Source: an uncultured Gammaproteobacteria bacterium (GTDB taxonomy: Bacteria > Patescibacteriota > Microgenomatia > CAZETR01 > Amesbacteraceae). From it: a stretch of 64,000 nt of DNA. Positions 41,393-56,297 of the stretch are shown here, piece by piece. The number at the start of each line of letters is the position of its first letter. The stretch's first letter is position 1. The translations under genes were made by a program, and so were the position numbers. The stretch is taken from NCBI GenBank assembly GCA_964502885.1, contig CAZCXU010000001.1, positions 93,352 to 157,351 on the forward strand, written 5' to 3'. Below the pieces are notes generated by a model. It searched no databases and was not told the DNA's origin. It saw nothing but the letters and a program-made list of their open reading frames with translations.

Positions 41393-42560
41393 CGGGTTGG
41401 GTGACAAAAGCCTTGAGGAATGCCAGGGCGAATGGATCTGGCTCCTGAGGGATTGCTCCTTCTGGCAATTGCGGAACAGTGCTTGGTGGTAGCTCGGGAC
41501 GGGGTATGGGGGCTGTCAGTTCCGGAGTGGGGGTAGTGGGGGGTGGTCCGAGCTCGGATGAATTTGATTGAGCAGTTGTAGTGGGGTTGTTTTCGGACTT
41601 GGGATTGTCTGTGGTTGTTGTGGTGGTGGGTTTGGCTTCAGCAGCTGGCGTAGCGGGGGAAGATGCTTCGGATGGTAGAGCCGGAATGTTTGGGATGGTG
41701 ACTTTTAGCCCCAAATCTTCGATGGCTTTCTGGATGCTTTTTGCCCGAAGAATAGTACCAGCTATTTGGGCATATTCTGCACCATTTTGCATTGAGGAAG
41801 CTGAACCTGAGAAGTCTCCTGCAGCGGCGCGGCCTATTGAAGAGATAATTCCAAGTAAAGCAATGAGTAAGAGCATGAGGGCGTAGGCCTCGGCGGATTT
41901 GTAATTTGATTCTGGATCCTTGTTTTTTATGATGTCAGTAAGTGCGCGTACAACCTGATTTTCAGGGGCGGTGCTGTTTTCGGTGATGATGATCACTTGC
42001 TCGGCTACTGCAGGGAGTGCGGCAGCTGCTAATTGGTCCGGGGTGGTTGCTGGGTTATGGTAAATCTCGGTGAGTGAAGAGAGACCGGCGGTAACCGCAT
42101 TGTCCATCTGTGCTTCCGGTATGATGTTAACCACCGACTGGGCCGCAGAATACTCCGCAGGTTTTGGTTTTTTGGCGAGAGAATCATAAGCATTGTTGAT
42201 GATTTTCATGGCCTCTAAAGCTGCTGGGTCGTTATTTGTGTCCGGATGCCAGCGGCGGGCAGCATCGAAAAAGGCTGAGCGTATCTGATCCGTGGTGGCA
42301 TTTTTTGGAAGACCAAGAATCTCATACGGATCTTGGCCATTCAGGTTTATTTCTGGCTTATTGGGTTTTTGAGCTTGTTCCTGGTTGGCGCGAGGTTGAG
42401 ATTCCGGAGTTGGTGCACGTTGTTCTTTTGGTGTAGTTGGATTTTGATTAATAGTGGAAGATTCGATAGGAGGGGTAAGATTTGAAATAGGGGGGGCTTC
42501 AGTGCCGCTGGCAATTTTATTGAGGACATCGGCAATGGCAGGAGGGGGAAACTCACTCAT
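41358..42560 (-). CDS. J-domain (DnaJ-like) protein with a TM segment and P/T-rich tail
   Basis: The J domain is DPYEILGLPKNATTDQIRSAFFDAARRWHPDTNNDPAALEAMKIINNAYDSL, with the HPD motif. A hydrophobic helix (AYALMLLLIALLGIISSIG) follows. There is no zinc-finger or DnaJ C-terminal domain. Confidence 0.75.
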   Translation of the reverse strand: MSEFPPPAIADVLNKIASGTEAPPISNLTPPIESSTINQNPTTPKEQRAPTPESQPRANQEQAQKPNKPEINLNGQDPYEILGLPKNATTDQIRSAFFDAARRWHPDTNNDPAALEAMKIINNAYDSLAKKPKPAEYSAAQSVVNIIPEAQMDNAVTAGLSSLTEIYHNPATTPDQLAAAALPAVAEQVIIITENSTAPENQVVRALTDIIKNKDPESNYKSAEAYALMLLLIALLGIISSIGRAAAGDFSGSASSMQNGAEYAQIAGTILRAKSIQKAIEDLGLKVTIPNIPALPSEASSPATPAAEAKPTTTTTTDNPKSENNPTTTAQSNSSELGPPPTTPTPELTAPIPRPELPPSTVPQLPEGAIPQEPDPFALAFLKAFVTQPVNAPVQVPKSV

Positions 42561-42624: not shown

Positions 42625-42709
42625 GGAGGATATCCCGAACGGCTGAGGGAATGGTTTGCTAAACCATGAAGGCGCAAGTCTTCGGTGGGTTCGACTCCCA
42701 CATCCTCCG
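42625..42709 (+). tRNA. tRNA-Ser (anticodon GCU)
   Basis: The cloverleaf has acceptor GGAGGAT/ATCCTCC, anticodon stem ATGGT/ACCAT with loop TTGCTAA, a long variable arm GAAGGCGCAAGTCTTC, and T-arm GTGGG-TTCGACT-CCCAC. The discriminator is G and CCA is not encoded. Confidence 0.9.
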
Positions 42710-42712
42710 CAA

Positions 42713-42928
42713 ATGAGATTATTAAATAAGAAATCATTATTACTAATATTGCTGGGTGGGATTTTTTACTTGTCATTTTATGTGTTTGGTTTGCTACATC
42801 GTATTGGGTTTCCTATTACACATCCCATTTATGCAGATTGTATTGGACACAAAAGGGTGTTTGAAGATTCAAGGGGTATAAGAAGAGTCGCGTGCTATGG
42901 ATTTATATACAACATCTGGCTTGAGTAA
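42713..42928 (+). CDS. Possible 71-aa single-TM protein
   Basis: The ATG at 42713 lies 4 nt after the tRNA. The product is MRLLNKKSLLLILLGGIFYLSFYVFGLLHRIGF... Nothing supports it beyond the ORF and its TM character. Confidence 0.25.
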   Translation: MRLLNKKSLLLILLGGIFYLSFYVFGLLHRIGFPITHPIYADCIGHKRVFEDSRGIRRVACYGFIYNIWLE

Positions 42929-42974
42929 AGGGTTTTTTAGTTGTATTACAATTTGTTGTTTTTGGGGATGTGGG

Positions 42975-43035
42975 CGGAAGGGGCGAATATTGAACTTCGT
43001 TCAAGAATCTCGCAAGACAGCGGAAGGGGCGAGAT
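42975..43035 (-). repeat. Two partial echoes of the 3' end of tRNA-Ser(UGA)
   Basis: CGGAAGGGGCGAGAT at 43021..43035 is identical to the 15 nt at the tRNA 3' end (43096..43110). CGGAAGGGGCGA at 42975..42986 is a 12-nt copy followed by a degenerate T-arm-like hairpin (TTGAAC-TTC-GTTCAA). Confidence 0.8.
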
Positions 43036-43095
43036 GGTGTGCGGTGCTTCGCATCCTCCGTTATCTCGCACTCTTTCTTCGCAGCGGAGCTGCTG

Positions 43096-43182
43096 CGGAA
43101 GGGGCGAGATTCGAACTCGCGAGGGTGTTGCCACCCTAGAGGTTTTCAAGACCTCCGCACTCGACCACTATGCGACCCTTCC
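43096..43182 (-). tRNA. tRNA-Ser (anticodon UGA)
   Basis: The minus strand reads GGAAGGGTCGCATAGTGGTCGAGTGCGGAGGTCTTGAAAACCTCTAGGGTGGCAACACCCTCGCGAGTTCGAATCTCGCCCCTTCCG. The anticodon loop is CTTGAAA, the variable arm is long, and CCA is not encoded. Confidence 0.9.
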
Positions 43183-43216
43183 TAGTGCAAATTAGCCTCC
43201 AAAATTATACCATTCA

Positions 43217-43741
43217 GTGTGCTATATTAGATTTATGGTTGAGGAAAATGTTGTGGAGCAGGAAAAAGTTTTGTTGACTTGGGAGGCAGAGAGTCGACCC
43301 TACAATCCAATTGATGAACAGACGAGGCCGGTAGTGCTCGTGTTGGCGGTGCTAGTAGGAATAGTGCTGCTTTTCACCGGCGAGACTATGATAATGATAG
43401 TGTTGGGATCATTAGCTTTTTTGTATGTGGTCTGGAATAAAAACCCGCCGGAAAAGATGGAGTTTACGATTACAAATAAGGGAATAAGAGCTTTTGATAG
43501 GGTGTATATGTGGTGGGAATTCGGGAGGTGGTGGATTGAAGAGAAGCAGAGCGGCAAAGTTCTGATATTGGAGATGATTTCCGGGTTAGTGGGTAGATTG
43601 TACTTGCCTTTGGAGGAGAGAAAGTCTGAAGATGTTAAAAAAGTAATGTCGAAGTATCTGGTATTTGATCAGCCACAAGATACGGCTGCTGACAAACTAG
43701 CAAGGTGGGTGGGGGAGAAGTTTCCTTTGAGAAATAGTTAG
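43217..43741 (+). CDS. Hypothetical two-TM membrane protein
   Basis: 174-aa ORF (alternative start MVEENVV at 43235). The hydrophobic hairpin is PVVLVLAVLVGIVLLFTGETMIMIVLGSLAFLYVVW. Confidence 0.5.
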   Translation: MCYIRFMVEENVVEQEKVLLTWEAESRPYNPIDEQTRPVVLVLAVLVGIVLLFTGETMIMIVLGSLAFLYVVWNKNPPEKMEFTITNKGIRAFDRVYMWWEFGRWWIEEKQSGKVLILEMISGLVGRLYLPLEERKSEDVKKVMSKYLVFDQPQDTAADKLARWVGEKFPLRNS

Positions 43742-43797
43742 TGATCCTAAGTGACAAGGTGGAAGAGGTAGCGCTGATTGTGGGTGTGGGGGTTGTG

Positions 43798-46476
43798 TCA
43801 ATTGACAACAGATGACACATCAACGACGTAAAAGCCTTTCTCGTTTGGTTCAATATTGCCATATAAGGTAATGGGTTGTCCGGAACCATTATTTTTAGTG
43901 GCGGTAATTTTTACTCCAGAGGTTGTTTTTTCTGCTAATAGGTTGTAATTTCTGTCGCCGTTTTTAGAATAGCTGACATATATACTTGATTTGGTCTTGG
44001 TGTTGAAAAAAACGTAAGCATACATTTTGGACACTGCGGGGTTGGAATCGCCAATGATCAGTATTTCTCCTTCTTTCAAAAAGACCGGATAATCCAAACT
44101 TCCCGAGGAGGATGCAATTGGAACATATTGATAGCTTCTATCTCCTTCAAGATATTTGACACCCTTTGTACGGGGGTTGGAGATCAACGGAAGCCAGTTT
44201 CCTTCAGGAAAGTAGACATTCAGACTGTCTGCGTTTTTAACGAATACCGGCCTGACTAACAAAGCCTTGCCAAACATATATTCATTTTTGGGCTGGGAGG
44301 GACTTGTCATTTCACTGTACTGAGCATTAGCTTTGGGATCGTTTGGATAATCAAACACGAGAGGTCTCATTAAGTGAGAGGTTTTCTCTTCGTAGCCCAG
44401 AGAAGCGTAATCAAATGCATAACGTTGGAGGCGCTGTCTCATTTGCATATTCCAAATAACGATATTTTGTAAGTGTGTATCCGGACCAGTGTCGTTTGAC
44501 AGACTGCCAGTTCTAAGCCGCCAGTAGCCAGGGGAAAACATGGTGACGGGAAACCAGGTTGCCAGTTGGTGTTGTCTGACAAAATGGACTTTTTCGTTTT
44601 CGTCATAGTAGTTTGATATCTGGCCGTTGTCATACTTTCCGACAATACCCCAATTTGTTTGCAGGGGAATACCTGATAGGACAGTGTTGATTGCCATGTC
44701 TGTGCAGTACTTGAATTTATAGATATTGGTACTGACGGACGAATAATTCGGATCTGGATAGTGAGGGGCCCAATAGTCTGTCGAGGTGCAAAGATTGTAA
44801 AATGCATCAGTCTGCGAGAACCAGTTGTTTGGAGTAAAGATTAAAAAGTTTGAACCGTATTGTTGATAATAAGTTTCGAATGGGAGTTTGAAAGCGTCAT
44901 CCCTGTCGTTTTTCAGCTTGCTCCTATCAAATATTGGAGTAGGAGTCGGGGTCGGTTTTGCTGAGAGGTGGGCGATATATCCTTTGTTGTCTGAAACGCG
45001 CATATCATCGTATTTAAATCCGCCAAACGTTTTGTTTGGATCTGTCGATCCGTATGCGCTTTTTAGCAGGGACGTCCATTTTGTTACCACGTCCACATCA
45101 AATACGTTTAATTGATAGTGGTATTTTTGCTTGGTCGTCTGGTTGTAGGTGAAGGTATCACCGTTATAGTAAACAGCTGGAGTTTGAGGAGAGTTCGAAA
45201 CGGTCAACAGAGTCTTGTCTATGGGCATACCGAATTTTGAGGAAACCACGGAAATGTTTGAGTTGTTTATGTCTCCCGGTTGTATCTGCGGTCTCATCCC
45301 CAGAATTGGGATTATCCCTTTGCTTCGAATTTTTGAGAATACATCAGCCAGTCCTGATGGGAATCTGGTTGTATTTTGAGCAAAGGCATCTGTTGCGGCT
45401 GTAAGCATTCTTTCGTCTCCACCGAGCCTGCAACCCACTGAAGCGCTATCGCTAATTCCTTTCCACCACCCTGATCCCAAAGTAAGAGTTGAGAGCTTAA
45501 TATTTTTCGAAGAGTAAAGGTTGACTATGCTGTTGCTGGCGTCGATAACAGTGGAGGCTGTTGGAGCGCATCCAAGTTCCTGGAACGTTTCCCAATTGTT
45601 GCCAAACGTCGCGTACTTCGGTTTTACGTTTAAAAAATTATTTCTGTCTAGATAGGCGAAGTATTTTGAGTAGGCATCCGCAAAAGAGGTCCCCTTTATG
45701 ATTACCAGTGGAGCAGATGACCCCTCCGGATAGAGGTGGTGTTTTTTAAATACTAAGCAAGTTTTGCCTTGTGGGCAATTAAACGCCTCACTGGGATTTT
45801 TGTTTACATTGCGTGTCAGCCTTAACATTTTCACTTCTGGTTGGACGTAAAAGATTATGAGAGACGCACTTGGGATGCTAATAATAGGTGTTCGCCCCCT
45901 GATAGCGTCGCCGTTCCATAGTTCCATTGTTTGGGATTGATTGTTGGAAAGACGGTTGGTTATTTCGTGTCCAAAGCCAAAGTTGGTATCAAGGAAGTCG
46001 TCTAGCTCGGCTTTATTTGATTTGAAAGGTGTTACGCCAAGACCAAATATTTTTGCAGTTGTGCCGCTAATGTGGATTTCGTATCTATCCACTTCACATC
46101 CTGTGGAGCCTAACACACAACTGGAGGAGCCGTTTCTGACGATAAAGCTATTGTTTGCTCCCTTTTCTATTGTGGCGGGGGCTTTTAACTCATAGACGCC
46201 GTTATCGATTTTATTAACAATTGTGTTGGGGGGAGGAGTAATGACCGTTTGGGTGTCGAGTTGGGCCTGGTAAATGGTGGAATTACCGGTTATGGCCGCT
46301 TTGGTTTGGGAGTTTGTTTGGTTTTTTATTGAGACAATTGTCGCAACAAATAAAGCACAGAGACCAACCAGCGATACCAGTGAAGCGAACAGAAACTTTT
46401 TCCTGGTTTGTTTGGGGGGAGTTGAGATTGGTTGTGTTTCCTGAAATATTTCTGGTGGGTTTTCGCTTTGATCCAT
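43798..46476 (-). CDS. Glycoside hydrolase family 31-like protein, membrane-anchored
   Basis: Has an N-terminal TM (FLFASLVSLVGLCALFVATIVSI). The C-terminal region RQRLQRYAFDYASLGYEEKTSHLMRPLVFDYPNDPKA...EYMFGKALLVRPVFVKNADSLNVYFPEGNWLPL follows the GH31 pattern (R..L.PY.Y......G.P..RPL...yP.D.....qymlG..lLV.PV.......vYlP.G.W). FGGFKYDDMRV is a catalytic-region candidate. Confidence 0.7.
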   Translation of the reverse strand: MDQSENPPEIFQETQPISTPPKQTRKKFLFASLVSLVGLCALFVATIVSIKNQTNSQTKAAITGNSTIYQAQLDTQTVITPPPNTIVNKIDNGVYELKAPATIEKGANNSFIVRNGSSSCVLGSTGCEVDRYEIHISGTTAKIFGLGVTPFKSNKAELDDFLDTNFGFGHEITNRLSNNQSQTMELWNGDAIRGRTPIISIPSASLIIFYVQPEVKMLRLTRNVNKNPSEAFNCPQGKTCLVFKKHHLYPEGSSAPLVIIKGTSFADAYSKYFAYLDRNNFLNVKPKYATFGNNWETFQELGCAPTASTVIDASNSIVNLYSSKNIKLSTLTLGSGWWKGISDSASVGCRLGGDERMLTAATDAFAQNTTRFPSGLADVFSKIRSKGIIPILGMRPQIQPGDINNSNISVVSSKFGMPIDKTLLTVSNSPQTPAVYYNGDTFTYNQTTKQKYHYQLNVFDVDVVTKWTSLLKSAYGSTDPNKTFGGFKYDDMRVSDNKGYIAHLSAKPTPTPTPIFDRSKLKNDRDDAFKLPFETYYQQYGSNFLIFTPNNWFSQTDAFYNLCTSTDYWAPHYPDPNYSSVSTNIYKFKYCTDMAINTVLSGIPLQTNWGIVGKYDNGQISNYYDENEKVHFVRQHQLATWFPVTMFSPGYWRLRTGSLSNDTGPDTHLQNIVIWNMQMRQRLQRYAFDYASLGYEEKTSHLMRPLVFDYPNDPKANAQYSEMTSPSQPKNEYMFGKALLVRPVFVKNADSLNVYFPEGNWLPLISNPRTKGVKYLEGDRSYQYVPIASSSGSLDYPVFLKEGEILIIGDSNPAVSKMYAYVFFNTKTKSSIYVSYSKNGDRNYNLLAEKTTSGVKITATKNNGSGQPITLYGNIEPNEKGFYVVDVSSVVN

Positions 46477-46587
46477 TTCTTACTTCGGTAAGCTTAGGCG
46501 TTGTTAATTTATATGTCAACCTTCCGCATTATTTGGACAGTAGAGAGTGGCGTATACAATTTGTATTCTAGTTTTGGAGATTGTTTG

Positions 46588-46659
46588 TGCCCTCAGTAGG
46601 AATTGAACCTACATCAACAGTTCCGGAAACTGCTACTCTATCCGTTGAGCTATGAGGGC
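46588..46659 (-). tRNA. tRNA-Arg (anticodon CCG)
   Basis: The minus strand reads GCCCTCATAGCTCAACGGATAGAGTAGCAGTTTCCGGAACTGTTGATGTAGGTTCAATTCCTACTGAGGGCA. The anticodon loop is TTCCGGA. Confidence 0.9.
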
Positions 46660-46686
46660 CTTTTTGACGGATTACGTTTGATTTTA

Positions 46687-47886
46687 TCAGCATAATCTAT
46701 CGTAAATCTCTTCGAGAGCATCTGTCATGGAGTCAGTGGTATATTTCTGAGCGTCTTTTGCTGCCTGTTGGCCGATGCGTCTTTGTAGTGAGGTGTCGGA
46801 CATGAGTTTTTCAAGAAGGCCGGCAAGGGCTTCGGGGTTTTGTGGATCAACCAGAAATCCGTTGTAGTTGTCTTTGATGTATTCTGTGGGACCTCCGGTG
46901 TTTGAAGAGATTACTACTTTTCCTGTGGCCATCGCTTCCAAATACATGAGGCCGAATGTCTCGTAGAGGGATGGAACACAAACAATGTCGCTGCCAGCGT
47001 AATATTCTGGCATATCGTCGGGATCAATCGTGTCAATAAAACTGACGTTGGATTTGACACCTGTTTTAGAGAGTTGCGTGTCCAGTGAACTTTTTGCGGC
47101 GGCAACCACTTCGTTTCCGTAGACTTCATTGAAAATACTCACAAACTGATAATTGGTGATACCCTTTGTTGCCAAATGTCCGAGGGCATCAAACACTAAT
47201 CGGAGGTTTTTTTGTTTGTTCAGGTTTCCCGTGGTGAGACTGAACAGGCGAGCAGGGCTAAACAGAATGGTTTGATCAGGCAGAGTACGAAATTTTTGCA
47301 TAACGGGTGAAGGAAGAGCCGATGAAAACTTTTTTACATCTATACCGTTATAAACTGTGGAGATCTTTTTCGCATTTGTGCCCAATTTCAACCATTCGTT
47401 TTTTACGAAATTACTGACACAAATCAAGTGATTCCAAGGGAGATCGCGGAGCGGTTTGGTGATTTCAGGATCTTTTAACTGGGCGTTGTGGGCGTGTTCG
47501 ACAATGGGGAGCGAAAACCCTAGTAGATGAGAGAAAATTGTGAGGATATTATCGACACCAATAGATTTGTCTGCAGAGCCGGATGGGTACGAGCCATTGT
47601 GAAAGTGAATCAGGTCCGGTTTAAGCTGGCTGATGATCTTTGAGAGATCGGCACAAGCAGTTGGCTTATCAATGGGATTTCGTGAGTCAATATATTTTCT
47701 ACGAAACACCCTAATGCCAAAAATGTATTTCTCGTTTTCTGCCGCATCGCTAAGGACGGAGGTAAGAACCGAAACATGATGTCCCCGTCTGACCAATTCT
47801 CTGGCTTGGTTAAGAAGAATGGTTTCAGCGCCTCCGACTTTTGGGTAGAACAACCAACCAACAAAAAGGATCCTTTTAGGATTCAT
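46687..47886 (-). CDS. Glycosyltransferase family 4 (GT-B fold)
   Basis: The N-terminus is FYPKVGGAETILLNQARELVRRGHHVSVLT. The C-terminal segment is VPSLYETFGLMYLEAMATGKVVISSNTGGPTEYI (EX7E-type motif). Confidence 0.85.
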   Translation of the reverse strand: MNPKRILFVGWLFYPKVGGAETILLNQARELVRRGHHVSVLTSVLSDAAENEKYIFGIRVFRRKYIDSRNPIDKPTACADLSKIISQLKPDLIHFHNGSYPSGSADKSIGVDNILTIFSHLLGFSLPIVEHAHNAQLKDPEITKPLRDLPWNHLICVSNFVKNEWLKLGTNAKKISTVYNGIDVKKFSSALPSPVMQKFRTLPDQTILFSPARLFSLTTGNLNKQKNLRLVFDALGHLATKGITNYQFVSIFNEVYGNEVVAAAKSSLDTQLSKTGVKSNVSFIDTIDPDDMPEYYAGSDIVCVPSLYETFGLMYLEAMATGKVVISSNTGGPTEYIKDNYNGFLVDPQNPEALAGLLEKLMSDTSLQRRIGQQAAKDAQKYTTDSMTDALEEIYDRLC

Positions 47887-48448
47887 AATGAAGATCGAGT
47901 TCTATTAAATCATTGTGAGAGAAATCCGGACGCGGCGAATTACCAATTTTTTCGGCTATCAAACGATTAAACATTGCATGACCCACCAATAAAACATTTT
48001 GATTTTTAATTTTTTTCAAAAATTCTTTGAGCTGGTTAATACGACTGATGAGCGTTTGAATATTTTCTCCGCCGGTGAAGCTCCAATCGTCAGAAATCAA
48101 TGATTGGGAGCGGGAATAGTCTTTGGGGAAGGAGTTGGCTGCCGCTGATGGGGTAAGGCCGCTAAGAACTCCAAAATCCACTTCGTTTAGCAAGGAAGTT
48201 TGTTCGATGGGAACACTTTTTTTGTATATTTTTTCCTGCTGGCGCTGAATGATTAATGCGGTGGCCAAACTCCTTTTTAATGTACTGCTGATTATTGTGT
48301 CGAGTTCGATAAACTCGGTAATTTTTTGGGCAAAAACTCTTAAACCCGCGATGCCGGTCGGATGTAATTCGGTATCTAACCTACTACCCGCAAAGACTCC
48401 GTTTAAATTGTGAGTAGATTTTCCATGACGGATCAGGAGAAATGACAT
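47876..48448 (-). CDS. Histidine phosphatase family protein (phosphoglycerate-mutase-like)
   Basis: I chose the start at ATG 48448 (MSFLLIRHGKSTHNLNGVFAG, RHG motif), which overlaps the upstream stop by 1 nt (TAATG). A later LVGHAMFNR segment supplies the second His. Confidence 0.8.
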   Translation of the reverse strand: MSFLLIRHGKSTHNLNGVFAGSRLDTELHPTGIAGLRVFAQKITEFIELDTIISSTLKRSLATALIIQRQQEKIYKKSVPIEQTSLLNEVDFGVLSGLTPSAAANSFPKDYSRSQSLISDDWSFTGGENIQTLISRINQLKEFLKKIKNQNVLLVGHAMFNRLIAEKIGNSPRPDFSHNDLIELDLHYES

Positions 48449-49806
48449 TATTCGATTATAGCCAGTAATTCTGCCAGTATTTGGATGGTTTTGTCGGCAG
48501 ATTCTCGAAGTTCCGGCACAGTTGGCCTGTACGCAATACTTAATCCACATCGGGAGAAAATGGGAAGAATTTTGTTGTTTCCTGCTACGAAAATGGTTTC
48601 TGACGCCTTTACTTTTTGTGACTTTATAGCGGTGTCGAAAGCGCTTAGGAAAGATTCCGTGAGATTTCTTTTTAACCACTTTTGCGACTTGCGGCTAATA
48701 GCTCCCGTAAATTTGCCTTGTTTTGTCTCCAATATGACACTGTTCACATAGTGGGCGCCAATCTGTTTGGCAACCGCTTCGGCAATGGGAGAAAAGTTTG
48801 AAGTGATTATGCCGATGCGATATTTGCGTTTGATAAGCGCTCTTGCCACTTCTCTGGCATAACGAATTAGTTGCAGGTCCCTGGTAAGTTCTCTGACTTT
48901 GGAAACCTCGATATCCCTGAACAGGAGCGCGTTTTTTTTCAAGTATTCATCACCAGAGATTTTTTCGGAAATATATAGCTCGTGGTTATTGACAATGTCG
49001 TTGTGAATACCTAACTTGATGAGAAGTTTGCTGAGTGATGGTAGTCTGAGTAGGGTGTTGTCGAGTGTGAAGATAACCAGCTTGTATTTGTGGCGAATGA
49101 GTCCGGCACGGGAAATCATAGTTTCCAAAACTTGTCGACTCATTTCCTTTACTGTCTCGGCTGAATTGGCACGATTTACCAGATGACCAATGTCTACTTC
49201 TACAATGCGTTGCCCGGACTCTATCGCGTCAAAAAGTAGGCCAATGTCAACCCCGTATCGATCTGAGAATTCAGCTGTTTGCAGAAAGCTCTTTTTTGCG
49301 CATATCTGACCACTGATGGGTTGATTGAAATAAATACTTGGAAAAAGTATTTCCATCATGGGTTTGACCGCAAACTCAGTGACCCGACCTCTTTTTCTGC
49401 TAAATGATCCCCGTGACATATCAACTTCGTCTTTGAGAACAGGTTCGACGATTTTGTAGATTTTTTGACTGGTGATGTTGCCAAGATCTGCGTCCAGAAA
49501 AAGAACGACTTCATTTTTTGCTCTTTTTACACCAGCCAGCAAAGCTTTCCCTTTGCCGCGATTTTTTTCCAGTCTGTGGTAGATAAATCTGGGATCGGTC
49601 TGAAACTGCTTTACTGAATTTATTGTATCGTCGGTACTGCCGTCATCAACAAAGATAAGTTCGTCCAGGTAGGGAACTTTTAACAATTCATTGAGAACAT
49701 GGATGAACAGGGGGTTTTCGTTATAGGATGGGACTACCGCAGTAAATTTTGTGTAGATGAGCTGGCTGTCTGTGGTATTTTCTGGTTGGAGCGCTTCATT
49801 TGACAT
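48448..49806 (-). CDS. Fusion: glucosyl/mannosyl-3-phosphoglycerate synthase-like glycosyltransferase (GT81/GT2-like) + HAD-like domain
   Basis: The N-terminal half has VVPSYNENP...FVDDGSTDDT...FLDADL and RGRVTEFAVKPMMEILFPSIYFNQPISGQICAKKSFL...DRYGVDIGLLFDAIESG. These follow the GpgS/MpgS pattern (GGRVTEL..RPLL...P.L...QPL.GE.A..R......YGVE..LL.D). The C-terminal half is HAD-like (KLVIFTLDNTLLRL...GIITSNFSP...FVAGNNKILPIF). Confidence 0.7.
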   Translation of the reverse strand: MSNEALQPENTTDSQLIYTKFTAVVPSYNENPLFIHVLNELLKVPYLDELIFVDDGSTDDTINSVKQFQTDPRFIYHRLEKNRGKGKALLAGVKRAKNEVVLFLDADLGNITSQKIYKIVEPVLKDEVDMSRGSFSRKRGRVTEFAVKPMMEILFPSIYFNQPISGQICAKKSFLQTAEFSDRYGVDIGLLFDAIESGQRIVEVDIGHLVNRANSAETVKEMSRQVLETMISRAGLIRHKYKLVIFTLDNTLLRLPSLSKLLIKLGIHNDIVNNHELYISEKISGDEYLKKNALLFRDIEVSKVRELTRDLQLIRYAREVARALIKRKYRIGIITSNFSPIAEAVAKQIGAHYVNSVILETKQGKFTGAISRKSQKWLKRNLTESFLSAFDTAIKSQKVKASETIFVAGNNKILPIFSRCGLSIAYRPTVPELRESADKTIQILAELLAIIE

Positions 49807-49949
49807 TGTGGCTAATTATAACAGTGATTTAATTGCATCACTTTTATGGAGTGATGACTAAATGTCTTTTGCTCTATGGGGTGTCCAAGTGCGAAGAATT
49901 TATGATTCTTCAAGTTTTGCGAATGAAGGTTTGTGCTGTGCGGGTACTG

Positions 49950-50037
49950 CGGAGAGGGTGGGATTTGAACCCACGAGGAGGTTTTGCCCCCTACAGCTTT
50001 TCGAGAGCTGCGCCTTCGACCACTCGGCCACCTCTCC
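49950..50037 (-). tRNA. tRNA-Ser (anticodon CGA)
   Basis: The minus strand reads GGAGAGGTGGCCGAGTGGTCGAAGGCGCAGCTCTCGAAAAGCTGTAGGGGGCAAAACCTCCTCGTGGGTTCAAATCCCACCCTCTCCG. The anticodon loop is CTCGAAA and the variable arm is long. Confidence 0.9.
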
Positions 50038-50096
50038 TGACGTATTGTTCCTTCGACTCCGCTCAGGACTGCGACTTTTTGACTAATCAAAAGTCT

Positions 50097-50171
50097 TGGT
50101 GCACCCGACAGGAATCGAACCTGTATCAACAGTTCCGCAAACTGTCACTCTATCCGTTGAGCTACGGGTGC
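50097..50171 (-). tRNA. tRNA-Arg (anticodon GCG), CCA encoded
   Basis: The minus strand reads GCACCCGTAGCTCAACGGATAGAGTGACAGTTTGCGGAACTGTTGATACAGGTTCGATTCCTGTCGGGTGCACCA. The anticodon stem is ACAGT/ACTGT and the loop is TTGCGGA. Confidence 0.88.
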
Positions 50172-50224
50172 AGATTTTGTAACGTAGAGTGAATTTTATC
50201 ATTTCCATAAGTTAAAATTGGCAG

Positions 50225-51724
50225 ATGGGCAAAAAAGTAGTCTTTGGGTTGGGTTTATGGGTGGCGGTGTGGGCAAGCTTTTGGTTTATGGGGTGGAAGC
50301 TAATTGACCCTGATTTTGGCTGGCACTTACAGATTGGAAGAAAGTTTTTAGCGGGAGAAATGGTAAAAACTGATCCTTTTTCATATACCATGCCGAGCTT
50401 TCCGTGGATTGATCATGGGAGGGTAACTGATATGGCGATTGCATTTCTGTACGACGGGTGGGGAATGGGAGTCACGGCGGCGGTGTTTGCAGGGATTGGT
50501 ACGGCTGCGTTGATACTGATTATTCCTGTGGGTTTGTGGGTGTGGAGTGTGGTGCCGCTACTGTTTGGCTGGGGAGTATTGGTGATGCGGTCGGGAGTGC
50601 GGCCGCAGATGGAAGATTGGCTGTTTGTGGCGATTATTTGGCGTGCTGTTGAGGCCGGCAGGTGGAAGTTTTTAAGGTGGTTTTTGCCTGTTCTGTTTGT
50701 CATCTGGGTAAATGTTCACGGGGGCTTTTTGTTGGGGTTAATTATTGTGTGTGCGGGAGTGGCGGGTAAGTGGTGGAAAAAACGAAGAATTGTGATATCT
50801 GATGTGATCGTGTGGATACTTTGTCTGTTGGGGACGGGGATAAATTATTATGGATTCAGAATTTGGGAGGAGATTTGGTTGACGGTTTCGGATACGCATT
50901 TGCGGGGCTCGATTGTGGAGTGGCAACCATTTGTGACTCGGGTAGAACTGGGGTTGTGGTTGCTTGGCGGAATGGTGTTTTTTGCTGGTAAAAAGTTTTT
51001 ACGCAATTTATCTGCGAGCAGGTTATTAATTGTTGCAGCGGTGACGGCTGCCGGTTTATCTTCATTACGGCACGCGCCATTTCTAGTCATGATTCTGGTG
51101 ACTTTGGGGGCAGAAATATTTAAAAATTTTTATGATGAGATTAAGTCTGATAAAGAAAAGGTAAAAAGAGCGAAGGTTTTTTATGGTGTGCTTCTAGGAT
51201 TGGGACTAATAATATTTGCAATGGAGGGGGGGGTGACTTTGTGGAAAGCCGGGCGCGGCAGACTTCTAAATTATCCTGATGGAGCAATTGAATATCTAAG
51301 GAAAAGTGAGATTTCAGGAAGACTTTTTTCCACTTATTCGTGGGGAGGATATTTGATATGGAAGCTGCCGGAGCAGAAAGTGTTTGTGGATGGAAGAATG
51401 CCGAGTTGGAGGTGGAAAGCTCCGGAAGGAGAAAGCGATTGGGCTTTTGTGGACCATGAAAAAATTCAATCAGGGGAAAAAAGAATGGAGTTGTTTGATA
51501 AATATAATATCAAGACCGTGTTGTGGGCGAAGCCGGCAGAGAAAAAGGGGATTACTGCTTGGTGGCAGAAAATGTGGGGAGGGCGATCGCAGGTTGGATT
51601 TGATGAAGCGTTGAAAAGCGAAGGATGGAAAGTGGTGTATGAGGATGCTATATCGGTGGTATTAACCTATCCAGTACCAGTTGACAAAAAAGAGAGAAAC
51701 GAGACAGAGTCCCAGAGCGGATAA
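50225..51724 (+). CDS. Polytopic membrane protein, possible GT-C-type glycosyltransferase
   Basis: 499 aa with at least 10 hydrophobic helices in the N-terminal 340 aa and a soluble C-terminal domain. It lies in a neighbourhood of glycosyltransferases. Confidence 0.5.
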   Translation: MGKKVVFGLGLWVAVWASFWFMGWKLIDPDFGWHLQIGRKFLAGEMVKTDPFSYTMPSFPWIDHGRVTDMAIAFLYDGWGMGVTAAVFAGIGTAALILIIPVGLWVWSVVPLLFGWGVLVMRSGVRPQMEDWLFVAIIWRAVEAGRWKFLRWFLPVLFVIWVNVHGGFLLGLIIVCAGVAGKWWKKRRIVISDVIVWILCLLGTGINYYGFRIWEEIWLTVSDTHLRGSIVEWQPFVTRVELGLWLLGGMVFFAGKKFLRNLSASRLLIVAAVTAAGLSSLRHAPFLVMILVTLGAEIFKNFYDEIKSDKEKVKRAKVFYGVLLGLGLIIFAMEGGVTLWKAGRGRLLNYPDGAIEYLRKSEISGRLFSTYSWGGYLIWKLPEQKVFVDGRMPSWRWKAPEGESDWAFVDHEKIQSGEKRMELFDKYNIKTVLWAKPAEKKGITAWWQKMWGGRSQVGFDEALKSEGWKVVYEDAISVVLTYPVPVDKKERNETESQSG

Positions 51725-52852
51725 AATAAAAAGGGGGAGGAAAGTTCGAAGAGAAGAAGTTTTTGTGGCAAGAAATATAAATAAGGGAAAGGAGACGCTT
51801 TGAAAGCGGGTAAATGCGGCCAGATCGCGAACTAACAAGGGGGTAAGAAAGATCGATAAGGATACGCCCCAAAGAACAAGGGGAAGGGTTTTACGGCTAA
51901 GATATAACAAGATGATCACAAAAAAAGCAACGAGGTTGTCAAGCTGGGAAGCGTGAACAGTATGGAAAGGTAGGTCTATTGTTTTCATAAGTAGTATGAG
52001 GTTGAGAATGGGGGCGGGAAGAACCATCGGACTGTACCAAACTGATTGGATGGCGAAGAAATAGATGGGATTATGTGCGGTTAAGTAATTGAATACCATC
52101 CAAACCAACATGGGTAGGCCGATGATTGTCGGATATACAACAGCCGTAAGCGGTTTAATTTTGGTTTCGACTATGGATTTAATCAGAATGAACAGGAAGA
52201 TGAAATTGACCAGAACAACTGTTCCTTTGGTTACATTTATCAGACCCAGCAGGATGGACGCGGGGAGGAACTTCTTTTGTAATAGGAAGTAGCTAAACCA
52301 GACAAGGAACAGCATTAGCAATGATTCCGCGTAATATGAGCGGAAAAAAATGGAAAAAGGGAAGACAAAAAGCAGCCAGGAAGCGCGTATGGCTATTTGT
52401 GGATTGTATAGCCTTGAAATTACAATCATTAAACTGAGAAAATTGCATACAAGAAGGATTTGAGTGAGGATAAAGGCGGCGAGTAACGAGTCTTTGAAAA
52501 TGACTTTGGTGAGCCAGCCTAGTAGTGGAAATGCAGGGAAAAAGGCATACGAAGGATTTTGCATAAGACTTTTGTCGTTGAGTGATTGCTCTGTGGGAGA
52601 AAACGAGTATCCAGAATCAATAATTTTTAAATACCATTGGGCGTCAAACTGGGCCATTCCGTGAAGAAGGTTGAAACCTTTTCCTGTGATGCGGGGATCT
52701 GTGAAGTAGTGGTGGGCATCATTGTGGTATGAAAAGCGGTTGAGGGGGATGAATGTGTGGAAAGTGCCGATAAAAAAGTAAAGAAGTGTATTGAATAGCA
52801 TAAATAACAAAGTGTGGCGAATCAGTATGTGTGGGGTTGGGGGGCCAGCCAT
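51662..52852 (-). CDS. Mannosyltransferase (PIG-V/PMT_2-like) GT-C membrane protein
   Basis: Contains the first-loop motif FDAQWYLKIIDSGYS, typical of the PIG-V-like family, and about 10 TM helices. Confidence 0.6.
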   Translation of the reverse strand: MAGPPTPHILIRHTLLFMLFNTLLYFFIGTFHTFIPLNRFSYHNDAHHYFTDPRITGKGFNLLHGMAQFDAQWYLKIIDSGYSFSPTEQSLNDKSLMQNPSYAFFPAFPLLGWLTKVIFKDSLLAAFILTQILLVCNFLSLMIVISRLYNPQIAIRASWLLFVFPFSIFFRSYYAESLLMLFLVWFSYFLLQKKFLPASILLGLINVTKGTVVLVNFIFLFILIKSIVETKIKPLTAVVYPTIIGLPMLVWMVFNYLTAHNPIYFFAIQSVWYSPMVLPAPILNLILLMKTIDLPFHTVHASQLDNLVAFFVIILLYLSRKTLPLVLWGVSLSIFLTPLLVRDLAAFTRFQSVSFPLFIFLATKTSSLRTFLPLFILSALGLCLVSLFFVNWYWIG

Positions 52853-52885
52853 GATAAAATTCTACAGCAGTGTGGAGTTGGTTTT

Positions 52886-52981
52886 GGAGAGGTCGCATAC
52901 AGGAGCCTCTATCTTCAACCTCGCGGTTGAAGTTTCTCCTGTATTACTTCCTCTCCTCGTTTCACTTGGAGAGGTCGCATA
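52886..52981 (+). repeat. Two upstream echoes of the 5' end of tRNA-Ser(GGA), the first forming a 71-nt tRNA-sized rod-like hairpin
   Basis: GGAGAGGTCGCATA occurs at 52886..52899 and 52968..52981 as well as at the tRNA 5' end (53101..53114). The first copy also shares the upstream TGGTTTT. Segment 52886..52956 closes with GGAGAGG/CCTCTCC, the same pairing as the tRNA acceptor stem. It contains the nested stems ATACAGGAG/CTCCTGTAT and CTTCAACC/GGTTGAAG. Confidence 0.8.
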
Positions 52982-53100
52982 TCAAACTTGCAGTTTGATA
53001 TAGCTTGCCGTGCTTTGTCAAAAATTGTAAAAATTTTTGAGTCGCAGGGCGCACTATAGCAAGCTATTTGACCTTATTTGTAATAAAATTTACTGGTTTT

Positions 53101-53190
53101 GGAGAGGTCGCATAGTGGTCTAGTGCGCACGCTTGGAAAGCGTGTGTCGCCGAAAGGTGACCGCGAGTTCAAATCTCGCCCTCTCCGCCA
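53101..53190 (+). tRNA. tRNA-Ser (anticodon GGA), CCA encoded
   Basis: The sequence is GGAGAGGTCGCATAGTGGTCTAGTGCGCACGCTTGGAAAGCGTGTGTCGCCGAAAGGTGACCGCGAGTTCAAATCTCGCCCTCTCCGCCA. The anticodon stem is CACGC/GCGTG with loop TTGGAAA, and the variable arm is long. Confidence 0.9.
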
Positions 53191-53470: not shown

Positions 53471-53899
53471 ATGTCTGAAGTAAAATTGGAGCATATGCGA
53501 ACAAATGTGAGGGTGGGGGCGATAATTGAGAGGGATGGAAAAATGCTTCTTATTCACCGTTGGAAAAACGGAGATGAATATTGGGTATTGGTTGGTGGTG
53601 GGGTAGAAGAGGGAGAAGATTTGGTTGAGGCGTTGAAACGGGAAGTATTGGAAGAGACCTCTTTGCGGTTGAAGAACTGGGAAGTTGAGATAGAACATGA
53701 AGCAATGGGGATGATGCATAAAATTTTCCGTTGTGTTACTGAAGAAGGGGAGCCTGTATTGGGTGGTCCTGAAAAAGAGGCAGATTCTGATGAAAATAGA
53801 TATGTACTGGAGTGGGTAGATTTTTCTACTATTGCTGAGATTGAGGATATTTACCCGAGAGTCACAAGAGAACTAGCCAGGAAACGCATCGCAAAGTGA
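53471..53899 (+). CDS. NUDIX hydrolase
   Basis: The Nudix box is GGGVEEGEDLVEALKREVLEETSL (GX5EX7REUXEEXGU pattern). Confidence 0.88.
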   Translation: MSEVKLEHMRTNVRVGAIIERDGKMLLIHRWKNGDEYWVLVGGGVEEGEDLVEALKREVLEETSLRLKNWEVEIEHEAMGMMHKIFRCVTEEGEPVLGGPEKEADSDENRYVLEWVDFSTIAEIEDIYPRVTRELARKRIAK

Positions 53900-53925
53900 G
53901 GGGATTGGCCGTAAAATGCATTGAA

Positions 53926-55194
53926 ATGAAGCTACTGACAATTATTGTGCCGGTATTTAATGAGGTTTCCACTCTAGGTGAAGTGAGGAGAAGATTGAAT
54001 GATTTGGTATTGCCTTTTAGTGTAAAAAAACAGATTGTTTGGGTGGATGATAAATCAGCTGATGGAAGCAGGGAAATGCTTTTGAAATGGAAGAAGGAAA
54101 AAAACCGGAAAGAATCTTTTGTGTTTCATCGGAAGAATTCAGGTAAGGGAGCTGCTGTGCAGAGCGGGCTTTTGGAGGCGGTCGGGGATTATGTGGTGAT
54201 ACAGGATGCTGATTTGGAATATCATCCACTTGATATAAAAAAACTGGTAAGTTTAGCAATCAGGAAGAATCTGCTGGCGGTGTATGGGAGCAGGGATAGG
54301 GAGATTAAGAACAAGTATCTCTATCCACATTACTATTGGGGATCACGTTTTTTGTGTTTTTTGATGCGAGTTTTCCATGGCCAGAAACTGACGGATCCGG
54401 AGACTTGCTACAAGCTGATTCATAAAGATGTGCTTAAGTTTATCGGGGTCGAAGAGAAGGGTTTTGGAATGGAGATTGAAATTTCGGCAAAATTGGCCAG
54501 ACTGCGATTGGATATTGGTGAGGTGGGCATTGGATATACACCAAGAAGTTTTTCTCAGGGTAAAAAAATTCGGGCAAAAGACGGGTTGATTGCTATGGGG
54601 CTGATACTGAAGTACTGGCTGTCGGATTTGCATTATGGGTGGTTTGACAGGATTTTGCGAAAATGGCGCAGGGATGCGATTTTTAACGAGTTGAATATTG
54701 ACGAAACTGATGTGGTGATGGATGTGGGCTGTGGAAGGCAGGCTGACTTGGGTTGGAAAATGAGTGGGCAAATAAAACAATATGTGGGAGTGGATATGTC
54801 GGTACCGGAAGTTCGGATCGGCAACATATCTTTACTGAAACGGAATTTAGAAATGGCATTTGTTGTGCCGGATAAAATGCGACCCACGAAGCTGGTTGGG
54901 ATGGCAATTTTGGAGCACCTGAAACATCCGGAAAGTTTCTTAAAAAACTGCCACAAATTATTAAAGCCCGGGGGAATTTTGGCTCTAACCACTCCAGCGC
55001 CACCATTGGCCGATTTAGTTTTGAGAATACTTTCGTGGGTGAAGCTAATTGATGGAGGAGAGATAGACGATCATAAAAAATATTTCGGAATGAGAGAATT
55101 GGAAGAGAAGTTGAAAAGTGCCGGTTTTGAACTGATCAGAAAGAAAAAATTCATAGTGATTTTTAACAACATGGTAATGGCTAGGAAAATATGA
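53926..55194 (+). CDS. Fusion: family 2 glycosyltransferase + class I SAM-dependent methyltransferase
   Basis: The start is MKLLTIIVPVFNE (the track ORF begins at 53896). The GT2 motifs are VWVDDKSADGS and VVIQDADLEY. The C-terminal MTase motifs are VVMDVGCGRQAD and LKPGGILALTTP. Confidence 0.8.
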   Translation: MKLLTIIVPVFNEVSTLGEVRRRLNDLVLPFSVKKQIVWVDDKSADGSREMLLKWKKEKNRKESFVFHRKNSGKGAAVQSGLLEAVGDYVVIQDADLEYHPLDIKKLVSLAIRKNLLAVYGSRDREIKNKYLYPHYYWGSRFLCFLMRVFHGQKLTDPETCYKLIHKDVLKFIGVEEKGFGMEIEISAKLARLRLDIGEVGIGYTPRSFSQGKKIRAKDGLIAMGLILKYWLSDLHYGWFDRILRKWRRDAIFNELNIDETDVVMDVGCGRQADLGWKMSGQIKQYVGVDMSVPEVRIGNISLLKRNLEMAFVVPDKMRPTKLVGMAILEHLKHPESFLKNCHKLLKPGGILALTTPAPPLADLVLRILSWVKLIDGGEIDDHKKYFGMRELEEKLKSAGFELIRKKKFIVIFNNMVMARKI

Positions 55195-56297
55195 AGATGC
55201 TTGTATTGGTGGCGGTGGTGATATGGTCCTTGGTGTTTGTGTATTTTGGTTATTCGGGGATGGTAACGCAGCCGAATGAGGGAGATAGTCTGGCATATCA
55301 TTTGCCGATTGCGCAGATGATTGGTGCGGGTAGCTGGATGGATAGGAGCAACTTTTTGAAACCATTTTATTTTTATCCTGCCATGGGGGAGACGTTTCTT
55401 TCGGGAATAATGAAAGTTGGGTTGCCGGCGAATTGGTTTAACTGGTTGGGGTGGATAATGTGGTCGGGAATTGTCTATGGATTGTTGAGGATGGCCGGAT
55501 TGGGACGGTCTGAAAGTGTGATAGGAGCTGTGGGGGTGGTGATGTGGCCATCTGTGGTGCGACTTATTCCCAATCAGACTGTGGATATATGGATGGGGGT
55601 GTGGTGGGCTGCTGCTGCAAGACAATTGCTTTTACGGGGTAGAAGCTCGCTTTGGGCTGGGATTTTTTTGGGGATTTTGAGCGGGACGAAAGTTTCCGGG
55701 TTGCTGTTTTCTGTTGTGTTGTGGCTTGTGCTCAGCAGGAGCTGTGATAGAAAATTATGGGCAGCTTGGGTGGTAGTGGGAGGTTTCTGGTATATACGCA
55801 ATCTATTACTAACCGGCAATCCGATTTATCCTGCTAGTGTGTTTGGGTTTGTCGGTGATCCCAATTTTCATCTAATGGATTGGTCAGTGGCAAAGACACT
55901 GAGCAGTTTTGCGGGATGGCGATTGTGGAGTAGTGCGTTGATGTCAGAATATCTGGGATGGATGGGTTTGCTTGTGCTGCCCCTGTGGTTGCGGAACAAG
56001 TGGACGCTACTTGGACTTTTGAATTTGGGTGTTTATTTGTTGCTGCCATCGTGGCCGCAAAACATTGTGTCGGATTTGCGATACGCATTTGTGGTGTTTC
56101 TACCGCTGACCGTGGCAATGTGGAAAGAGGTAAAGAAAAGGCGATTAGAAGTGTGGATGGGGCTAATGACGATTTGTATGGCAGTGATGGAATTGACTCA
56201 GCTGGATTTCCGGCCGAAGTTGTTTGTGGTTGGTCTGGCAATTTCGGGATGGGTGCTTTACCGAAGGAGGGTAGATGTGGAAAAGTTTTTGGCATAA
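55191..56297 (+). CDS. Polytopic membrane protein, GT-C (ArnT/PMT-like) candidate
   Basis: 368 aa with about 10 TM helices and an acidic first loop (NEGDSLAYHLPIA). It overlaps the upstream gene by 4 nt. Confidence 0.5.
   Translation: MKMLVLVAVVIWSLVFVYFGYSGMVTQPNEGDSLAYHLPIAQMIGAGSWMDRSNFLKPFYFYPAMGETFLSGIMKVGLPANWFNWLGWIMWSGIVYGLLRMAGLGRSESVIGAVGVVMWPSVVRLIPNQTVDIWMGVWWAAAARQLLLRGRSSLWAGIFLGILSGTKVSGLLFSVVLWLVLSRSCDRKLWAAWVVVGGFWYIRNLLLTGNPIYPASVFGFVGDPNFHLMDWSVAKTLSSFAGWRLWSSALMSEYLGWMGLLVLPLWLRNKWTLLGLLNLGVYLLLPSWPQNIVSDLRYAFVVFLPLTVAMWKEVKKRRLEVWMGLMTICMAVMELTQLDFRPKLFVVGLAISGWVLYRRRVDVEKFLA

Follow-up and report, generated by a model that had tools for sequence, protein, structure and literature searches.

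A GpgS-like glycosyltransferase with a degenerate HAD domain, coupled to a histidine phosphatase and a GT4 enzyme: a candidate glycosyl-glycerate cassette in CPR bacteria

The window analyzed here, 64,000 nucleotides of contig CAZCXU010000001.1 (NCBI GenBank assembly GCA_964502885.1; Patescibacteriota, Microgenomatia, Amesbacteraceae), carries on its minus strand three genes that form a translationally coupled cassette (49806..46687). The first encodes a 452-aa fusion of a glycosyltransferase (GT) domain and a HAD domain (49806..48448), recognized from its open reading frame (ORF), Pfam, NCBIfam, an AlphaFold2 model and Foldseek. The second encodes a 190-aa histidine phosphatase of the His_Phos_1 family (48448..47876; Pfam, gene overlap, alignment to PspA, synteny), and the third a 399-aa retaining glycosyltransferase of family GT4 with the GT-B fold (47886..46687; Pfam, NCBIfam, PDB match, synteny, fusions). 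The ATG of the phosphatase gene overlaps the stop codon TAA of the fusion gene in the string TAATG, so that the translational coupling put forward in the original prediction can be read directly from the DNA, and the GT4 gene overlaps the phosphatase gene by 11 nt. The downstream edge of the cassette is marked by a tRNA-Arg(CCG) gene (46587..46659, minus strand; ARAGORN; Rfam tRNA, 67.2 bits), beyond which lies the gene of an 892-aa GH31-like protein; all four ORFs are co-directional and lie at the coordinates originally predicted. A scan for promoters and terminators gave sites no more numerous than in shuffled sequence, and Rfam detected tRNAs and tmRNA only, with no riboswitch upstream of the cassette. 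We discuss the cassette as a candidate route to a glycosylated glycerate in which the phosphatase domain of the fusion appears to be dead.

The N-terminal GT-A domain of the fusion (aa 17-236; 49099..49758, minus strand) was delimited by residue alignment to Mycobacterium tuberculosis GpgS. The motif strings RGRVTEF...KPMM...QPISGQ...YGVDIGLLFD and FTLDNTL, on which the original prediction was built, are found in the 452-aa translation. Pfam gives Glycos_transf_2 at 90.6 bits together with weak HAD matches, and the best NCBIfam model for the fusion is that of GpgS (PRK13915; 131.6 bits over nearly the full model length), with the next GT2 family at 53 bits. Among PDB sequences, the best matches to the GT domain are the GpgS proteins of M. 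tuberculosis and M. hassiacum (71-77 bits, with 77 for M. tuberculosis), followed by R. xylanophilus MpgS (53.7 bits) and, more weakly, dolichol-phosphate mannose synthase (34 bits). An AlphaFold2 model of the fusion, made with 27 homologues (mean pLDDT 87.2), consists of two soluble domains, GT-A and HAD, and its N-domain matches GpgS structures in Foldseek at a target TM of ~0.70. The profile search, the fold and the PDB matches thus agree with the original assignment of the GT half to the GpgS/MpgS type. A generic GT2 or polyprenol-phosphate transferase was also considered and is ruled out by the profile and fold scores, which favor GpgS.

Native numbering of M. tuberculosis GpgS was rebuilt from the HMMER alignment, and residue roles were taken from the structural literature (PMC2581804). 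The DxD motif (D134-S-D136 in GpgS) corresponds to D105-A-D107 in the fusion; the donor-network residues K114 and E232 correspond to K85 and D187, the donor-pocket residues Y229 and M269 to Y184 and M222, and the donor-pocket position L209 to I164. MgS, too, has Asp in place of this Glu (E232). The PLSGE loop of GpgS, whose Ser has been proposed to exclude mannose (PMC2581804), is P163-I-S-G-Q167 in the fusion, and since this loop has the Ser of GpgS, the hexose is probably glucose. The motif G184-R-V-T187-E, by which GpgS binds the acceptor carboxylate via main chain and Thr (PMC2581804), is represented by G140-R-V-T143-E, of which R141-V-T143-E is encoded at 49375-49386 (minus strand); the RVTE motif is flanked by the conserved basic residues R139 and R141. 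In close homologues the DxD, donor and acceptor positions, RVTE included, are more than 90% conserved. Judging from these alignments, the GT domain is assigned to the GpgS/MpgS fold group, with its predicted carboxylate-binding machinery kept.

The C-terminal part of the fusion (aa 240-452; 48451..49089, minus strand) appears to be a pseudo-HAD domain of the HAD-IB, phosphoserine-phosphatase-like type, as defined by phmmer alignment, fold match and column counts. The fusion scores 51.9 bits on the NCBIfam SerB model; the HAD domain aligns with Methanocaldococcus jannaschii phosphoserine phosphatase (MjPSP; 1F5S/1L7O) at 54.9 bits in phmmer, and its model matches MjPSP in Foldseek at a target TM of 0.79-0.83, the Rossmannoid HAD fold with its C1 cap being retained. 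Motif I reads FTLDNTL (49051..49071, minus strand), that is, TxDxT for DxDxT. In the HMMER alignment T247 stands opposite the nucleophile D11 and D249 opposite D13 of MjPSP, which upholds the original reading of an Asp-to-Thr replacement; the register is the same as before, and no alignment restoring DxDxT emerged. As a candidate nucleophile, D249 is ruled out by this placement and by the intact relatives, whose FDMDNT matches FTLDNT column for column. At the motif II position, S99 of MjPSP, the fusion has T335, so that Ser/Thr is kept (most relatives have Ser). The motif III residue K144 falls on T383 and is probably lost, in a gapped and uncertain alignment; the family column has no conserved Lys. 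The original prediction had overlooked a further loss in motif IV, which reads FVAGNNKIL (48565..48591, minus strand): GDGAND of MjPSP aligns with AGNNKI, and the two Asp residues of GDxxxD, D167 and D171, are replaced by G410 and I414. Among 100 close homologues the nucleophile column holds Thr in 83, Asn, Ser or Ala in 12 and Asp in 2, and D249 is kept in 95. With the nucleophile and both Mg2+-holding Asp residues of motif IV gone from the alignment, hydrolysis by the normal HAD mechanism is predicted to be impossible for the fused domain.

To place this degeneration in context, 160 loci (L numbers below) were drawn from genome and metagenome collections, with redundancy removed at 95% identity and at least 700 nt downstream required; the state of motif IV was scored by a pattern test. 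A close clade, whose members score 300 bits or more against the window protein, comprises 25 loci of bacteria of the candidate phyla radiation (CPR). A distant clade of 78 loci, from Chitinophagaceae, Ignavibacteria, Verrucomicrobia, Acidobacteria and others, has ~28-31% identity over both domains. The close clade has lost the nucleophile Asp in 24 loci and motif IV in all 25, and carries a His_Phos_1 gene within 1.5 kb downstream in 20; the distant clade has lost the nucleophile in 10 of its 78 loci, keeps motifs I and IV intact in 66, and has such a phosphatase gene within the same distance in none. The pairing of a dead HAD domain with an RHG-type neighbor, originally predicted from a single locus, is therefore conserved across the close clade, and the inactivation is a lineage trait, not an error. 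Close representatives of the fusion number ~100 (clusters at 90% identity) and, where named, belong to Berkelbacteria, Roizmanbacteria (one homologue with 70% identity), WS2, Patescibacteria and a few small archaea. The suggestion that such a pathway would be unusual in reduced genomes does not survive this distribution of ~100 CPR clusters with relatives in small archaea.

A neighbor-joining tree of 106 GT domains, rooted on M. tuberculosis GpgS and, having no bootstrap support, only indicative, places the dead-HAD CPR group together with a HAD-less archaeal group. The basal archaeal loci L110 and L013 keep the motif I Asp and have neither partner gene, and L110 retains motif IV as well. Distant-clade members reach 158-175 bits with the GpgS model (below its cut-off) and 90-98 bits with SerB. 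Their fusions stand alone, often with a gene that reads as universal-stress-protein-like next to them; it lies ~1.4 kb downstream of the fusion start in 30 loci within L015-L080. Such a neighbor would fit a stress-solute role of the ancestral two-step enzyme. Eight Chitinophaga loci, cultured isolates included (L036, L043, L052, L056, L059, L060, L068 and L079), have the motif FNLDET and a weakened motif IV. In Chitinophaga, which can be cultivated and assayed, the HAD domain was thus inactivated independently.

The degenerate HAD domain is still under selection. Synonymous sites are saturated in most pairs of loci, and only L082/L101 and, in part, L086/L093 are usable for dN/dS; in L082/L101, the least saturated pair, the ratio is 0.10 for the dead HAD domain and 0.055 for the GT domain. 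Where GT identity is 70-80%, dead HAD domains share 50% identity and intact ones 70%; where it is 80-90%, the values are 67% and 80%. From these comparisons the constraint on the dead domain appears relaxed yet still strong, with purifying selection persisting, which makes a role as a structural or ligand-binding module probable. In some backgrounds the domain can be done without, as its truncation in the archaeal sister group shows. A substrate-bound complex of phosphoserine phosphatase (1L7P) is listed in the PDB with 1L7O, and the 1L7O chain has N at position 11 in our alignment. This D11N mutant is inactive, and it is plausible that a HAD domain lacking its nucleophile may bind a ligand without catalysis.

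The histidine phosphatase has kept its own catalytic residues. It matches Pfam His_Phos_1 at 97.5 bits, and alignments to H. thermophilus PspA and orthologues recover the full catalytic set, namely the RHG motif R7-H8-G9 plus R59, E89 and H157. Its nearest solved relative is PspA, a phosphoserine phosphatase of the histidine-phosphatase type (47.7 bits). Phosphoserine is the 2-amino analogue of 3-phosphoglycerate.

The third protein of the cassette has both GT-B fold domains in Pfam (Glyco_transf_4, 81.2 bits; Glycos_transf_1, 123.6 bits). Its best PDB match is BshA, over the full length (71 bits), followed by MshA; BshA and MshA glycosylate small anionic acceptors. Related loci have counterparts of the three cassette genes and of no others, and phosphatase and GT4 are functionally tied by two independent gene fusions. 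At L095 the ORF that immediately follows the gene of the dead-HAD fusion encodes a His_Phos_1 domain (119.8 bits) and GT4 in one protein; at L111 the GpgS-like gene is followed by one ORF in which the order is reversed, with GT4 first and His_Phos_1 (53.5 bits) second. The gene order also varies: L002 has the dead-HAD fusion, then GT4, then the phosphatase, and the archaeal loci L112, L116 and L117 have a GpgS-like GT with a HAD remnant, then GT4, then a His_Phos_1 protein of 164-166 aa that keeps the core catalytic residues and has no cap insert. The neighbors of L112 and L116 include an archaeal-type GluRS and Mre11/Rad50. Where the original prediction let a GT4 and a GH31 enzyme complete the block, only the GT4 has held up, as a conserved partner that is twice fused; a tRNA gene stands between the cassette and the GH31-like gene, which shows no synteny.

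In five Berkelbacteria-type loci (L004, L008, L009, L010 and L012; region at ~8-17 kb in locus coordinates), the fusion gene is preceded, within a few hundred bases, by a gene for a GalT-like nucleotidyltransferase of the HIT family. The same loci carry more GT4 and GT2 genes downstream, joined in L009 and L012 by a GT5 starch-synthase-like gene. These neighbors hint that the product may prime a glucan there.

We consider it somewhat probable that the cassette makes glycosyl- or diglycosyl-glycerate via a phosphorylated intermediate, with the phosphatase step taken over by another enzyme family. In a first step, suggested by homology, the GT81-like domain would glycosylate 3-phosphoglycerate at its 2-OH, with an NDP-sugar as the hexose donor. 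The fused HAD domain would be unable to dephosphorylate the resulting glycosyl-3-phosphoglycerate, and would be kept as a structural or ligand-binding module. The histidine phosphatase would then perform the dephosphorylation, and the GT4 enzyme would add a second sugar, roles to which synteny, gene overlap and the gene fusions point. That the acceptor is a phosphorylated C3 acid is suggested by the conserved carboxylate motif, by the ancestral fused phosphatase, and by the phosphoserine-phosphatase-like nature of both the HAD domain and the nearest relative of its replacement. Such a compound might serve as a compatible solute or prime the synthesis of a larger glycan.

Several findings weigh against this pathway. 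The score of the GT domain is half the NCBIfam equivalog cut-off for GpgS (262), which means that by the curated criterion it is no GpgS orthologue. Its beta6-alpha6 loop is ~15 residues shorter than in M. tuberculosis GpgS. The metal ligand H258 of that enzyme is N211 in the fusion, a position at which over 80% of close relatives keep the His; R256 and R261 have become L209 and N214, and these two Args are not kept in close relatives either. For the phosphatase, the best NCBIfam matches are CobC-like (71 bits), PspA-like (59.6 bits) and an Rv2228c-type model, all below cut-off, and none of the 43 PDB sequences matched at E<=1e-3 is a chain named glucosyl-3-phosphoglycerate phosphatase. The phosphatase neighbor is absent from five of the 25 close loci, and in some Chitinophaga species, where the nucleophile has changed from D to N, no histidine phosphatase gene stands next to the fusion. 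The two gene fusions, finally, establish a functional link and not the order of the steps.

The points that concern the acceptor side would also fit a different chemistry, in which a GT of the GpgS/MpgS fold acts on another small hydroxy acid or phospho-compound (such as D-glycerate, lactate or 2-phosphoglycerate), with the phosphatase and GT4 acting on that intermediate and the product being something other than a glycosyl-glycerate. The beta6-alpha6 loop has been suggested as an acceptor contact in GpgS (PMC2581804), so its shortening could mean a different acceptor; the substitution of R256 and R261 and the score below the equivalog cut-off go the same way, and literature searches gave no characterized member of the fusion family. 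We regard this alternative as quite improbable, given that the carboxylate-binding RVTE motif is conserved, with the conserved basic residues R139 and R141 beside it, and that an ancestral HAD partner of the phosphoserine-phosphatase type implies a phosphorylated, C3-acid-like product.

Within the glycosyl-glycerate pathway, two orders of the last steps can be envisaged. Either the GT4 enzyme glycosylates the intermediate while it still bears its phosphate and the phosphatase follows, which is the sequence of the GpgS-MggA-MggB route to mannosylglucosylglycerate (MGG), or the phosphate is removed before the GT4 enzyme acts, which is how mycobacteria proceed from glucosylglycerate to diglucosylglycerate. 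We favor the GT4-first order, only slightly; it would explain the loss of an active fused phosphatase.

The reverse order belongs to a plain non-orthologous replacement, in which the histidine phosphatase does the former job of the HAD domain, the redundant HAD domain has decayed neutrally and stays for folding or oligomerization of the GT, and the GT4 extends free glycosyl-glycerate, as in early synthesis of mycobacterial methylglucose lipopolysaccharide. This explanation shares the three steps given above and differs in their order and in the role of the dead domain. Mycobacteria use GpgS and then the histidine phosphatase GpgP (PMC3240985), and the genes of the window stand in the matching order of fusion, phosphatase and GT4. 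The truncated HAD of the archaeal sister group is what one expects of a dispensable module, the dead HAD evolves faster than intact HADs, and the extra GT4, GT2, GT5 and GalT-like genes at Berkelbacteria-type loci fit extension into a glycan. On the other hand, neutral decay sits poorly with clear purifying selection on the dead domain (dN/dS ~0.1), with D249 retained at the frequency given above and with the Ser/Thr of motif II kept; the gene order at L002 and the archaeal loci is GT, GT4, phosphatase; and the GT4-phosphatase fusion of L111 resembles synthase-phosphatase fusions, in which the phosphatase acts last. We see plain replacement as possible, though on balance not probable.

A bolder version of the GT4-first order would give the dead domain an active part. 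Here the HAD domain would have been switched off so that the second glycosylation precedes dephosphorylation; the pseudo-HAD would bind the glycosyl-3-phosphoglycerate that its own GT domain produces and hold it or hand it to GT4, the histidine phosphatase would act on the diglycosylated phospho-intermediate only, and the trio would be a module shared by CPR bacteria and DPANN-like archaea. We think this unlikely as a whole. If it were true, ultra-small organisms would gain diglycosyl-glycerate as a solute or glycan primer.

The GH31-like gene (46476..43798, minus strand; ORF and Pfam PF21365) encodes a very divergent protein with an N-terminal hydrophobic anchor, which suggests a location outside the cytoplasm. 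Only the C-terminal GH31 domain PF21365 was found (61.3 bits); a permissive Pfam search detected no GH31 catalytic domain, and PDB matches are confined to the C-terminal third. Among 5.8 billion proteins a single homologue was recovered (59% identity, 1487 aa), and the gene has no counterpart in any related locus compared. The segment GGFKYDDMR, with its YDDM, is shared with that homologue and is a possible nucleophile region; it is a poor match to the GH31 signature (WxDMNE-type). As a member of the pathway the gene was ruled out on account of the intervening tRNA-Arg gene, the lack of synteny and the single homologue.

The surroundings of the cassette bear on one more explanation, envelope glycosylation, in which the GT would be a generic GT2 polyprenol-phosphate or glycolipid transferase and the cassette, the GH31-like protein and membrane proteins would together build or trim a surface glycan. 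A GT2-methyltransferase fusion and large multi-pass membrane proteins are encoded nearby, the GH31-like protein is membrane-anchored, and dolichol-phosphate mannose synthase is among the weaker PDB matches (34 bits). The GpgS matches, however, lie far above any polyprenol-phosphate GT match, the AlphaFold2 model comprises the two soluble domains only, and the GH31-like gene stands behind a tRNA gene and is non-syntenic. Envelope glycosylation is largely refuted by the profile and fold searches, and we hold it to be very improbable.

The GT2-methyltransferase gene (53896-55194, plus strand) encodes a 432-aa fusion of a GT2 glycosyltransferase and an S-adenosylmethionine-dependent methyltransferase domain. 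It lies among several genes (50225-51724, 51662-52852 and 55191-57816) for large multi-pass membrane proteins that lack a Pfam match, and the region may serve envelope glycosylation. Two tRNA genes lie upstream of the cassette, tRNA-Ser(CGA) (49949-50037) and tRNA-Arg(GCG) (50097-50171), both on the minus strand and found by ARAGORN and Rfam, and one lies downstream. They belong to a set of six tRNA genes scattered among protein genes over ~10.5 kb (42625-53190), four for tRNA-Ser (GCT, TGA, CGA and GGA) and two for tRNA-Arg (CCG and GCG). A tmRNA gene (40241-40639, minus strand; Rfam, 94 bits) has the predicted tag ARVEGFVAKVNPFNSIFSTQFAPRMLYA, which is long for a tmRNA tag. At 41358-42560 (minus strand) lies the gene of a 400-aa Pro/Thr-rich protein with a J-domain-like segment (DPYEILGLP...WHPD), which overlaps the 3' end of a ComF-like gene on the opposite strand by ~35 nt. 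GC skew is positive in every 2-kb bin of the window (1-64000), reaching 0.45, and falls to ~0.11-0.14 only over 44-50 kb, the segment in which the minus strand encodes the cassette and the GH31-like protein; it thus seems to follow the coding strand strongly.

Each component of the cassette has a known counterpart, and the combination is new. With M. tuberculosis GpgS (Rv1208, GT81) and R. xylanophilus MpgS, the GT domain shares the GT-A fold, the DxD motif, the donor network of Lys, Asp and acidic residue, the Ser of PxSGx, YGV(D/E)IGLL and RVTE. It differs in its 28-30% identity, its score at half the cut-off, its shorter beta6-alpha6 loop, the non-conservation of R256 and R261, the Asn that the window protein has for H258, and its fusion to a HAD domain. 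We know of no characterized GpgS that carries a HAD fusion, and none turned up in literature searches; these searches found no report linking GpgS-type enzymes to CPR bacteria and none of a GpgS-HAD fusion, Bacteroidetes included.

The mycobacterial phosphatase GpgP (Rv2419c) is a histidine phosphatase (PMC3240985). The window phosphatase is likewise of the RHG superfamily and has the same proposed role, that of a non-HAD phosphatase serving a GpgS-type synthase. A specific relationship to GpgP was not detected; the best matches are the PspA, CobC and Rv2228c-like models, below cut-off. The window phosphatase is coupled to the synthase and in relatives sometimes fused to GT4, a linkage that the available part of the source does not describe for the mycobacterial gene.

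In the MGG pathway of Petrotoga mobilis and Rhodopirellula baltica, GpgS is followed by the GT4 enzyme MggA, which acts on glucosyl-3-phosphoglycerate, and then by the phosphatase MggB (PMC3736172). The enzyme logic of GpgS-type synthase, GT4 and phosphatase is alike; MggB, in contrast, is HAD-like where the window has a histidine phosphatase, and the window synthase carries a dead HAD domain. A parallel for the dead domain itself comes from sucrose-phosphate synthase (SPS). Most SPS enzymes have an inactive phosphohydrolase domain and depend on a separate phosphatase (PMC6753628), and their domain resembling sucrose-phosphate phosphatase (SPP) has been proposed to aid SPP binding and metabolite channelling (PMC4493782). 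Both systems fuse a sugar-phosphate synthase to an inactive HAD domain and leave dephosphorylation to a separate enzyme. They differ in that SPS is of the GT-B fold (GT4) and the window GT of the GT-A fold, and in that SPP is itself a HAD enzyme, whereas the replacement in the window is from an unrelated superfamily.

With phosphoserine phosphatase (MjPSP, SerB), the HAD domain shares the fold, D13 and the Ser/Thr of motif II, and intact Bacteroidota fusions reach 90-98 bits on SerB. In the window protein, the nucleophile D11 is Thr, the motif IV Asps are Gly and Ile, and the SerB score falls to 51.9 bits. The known HAD-like GpgP/MpgP group belongs to class IIB. The intact GpgS-like/SerB-like fusions of Chitinophaga, Terrimonas and other Bacteroidota are apparently uncharacterized. 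With them, a HAD-IB type of glycosyl-3-phosphoglycerate phosphatase may join the two known types, the HAD-like GpgP/MpgP and the histidine phosphatases, as a third.

What is new, then, is the superfamily of GT81-like/SerB-like fusions, the conserved death of its HAD domain in CPR bacteria along with a recruited, sometimes inter-fused histidine phosphatase and GT4, and, in small archaea, the trio without its HAD domain. Few biosynthetic pathways can be recognized in CPR bacteria and DPANN archaea, most of which are uncultured, and the cassette predicts a specific small molecule for them. One fusion superfamily with its HAD domain in three states, namely active, dead with a replacement phosphatase adjoining, and truncated, offers a clean case of non-orthologous displacement, and it should be useful for studying the origin and persistence of pseudoenzyme domains.

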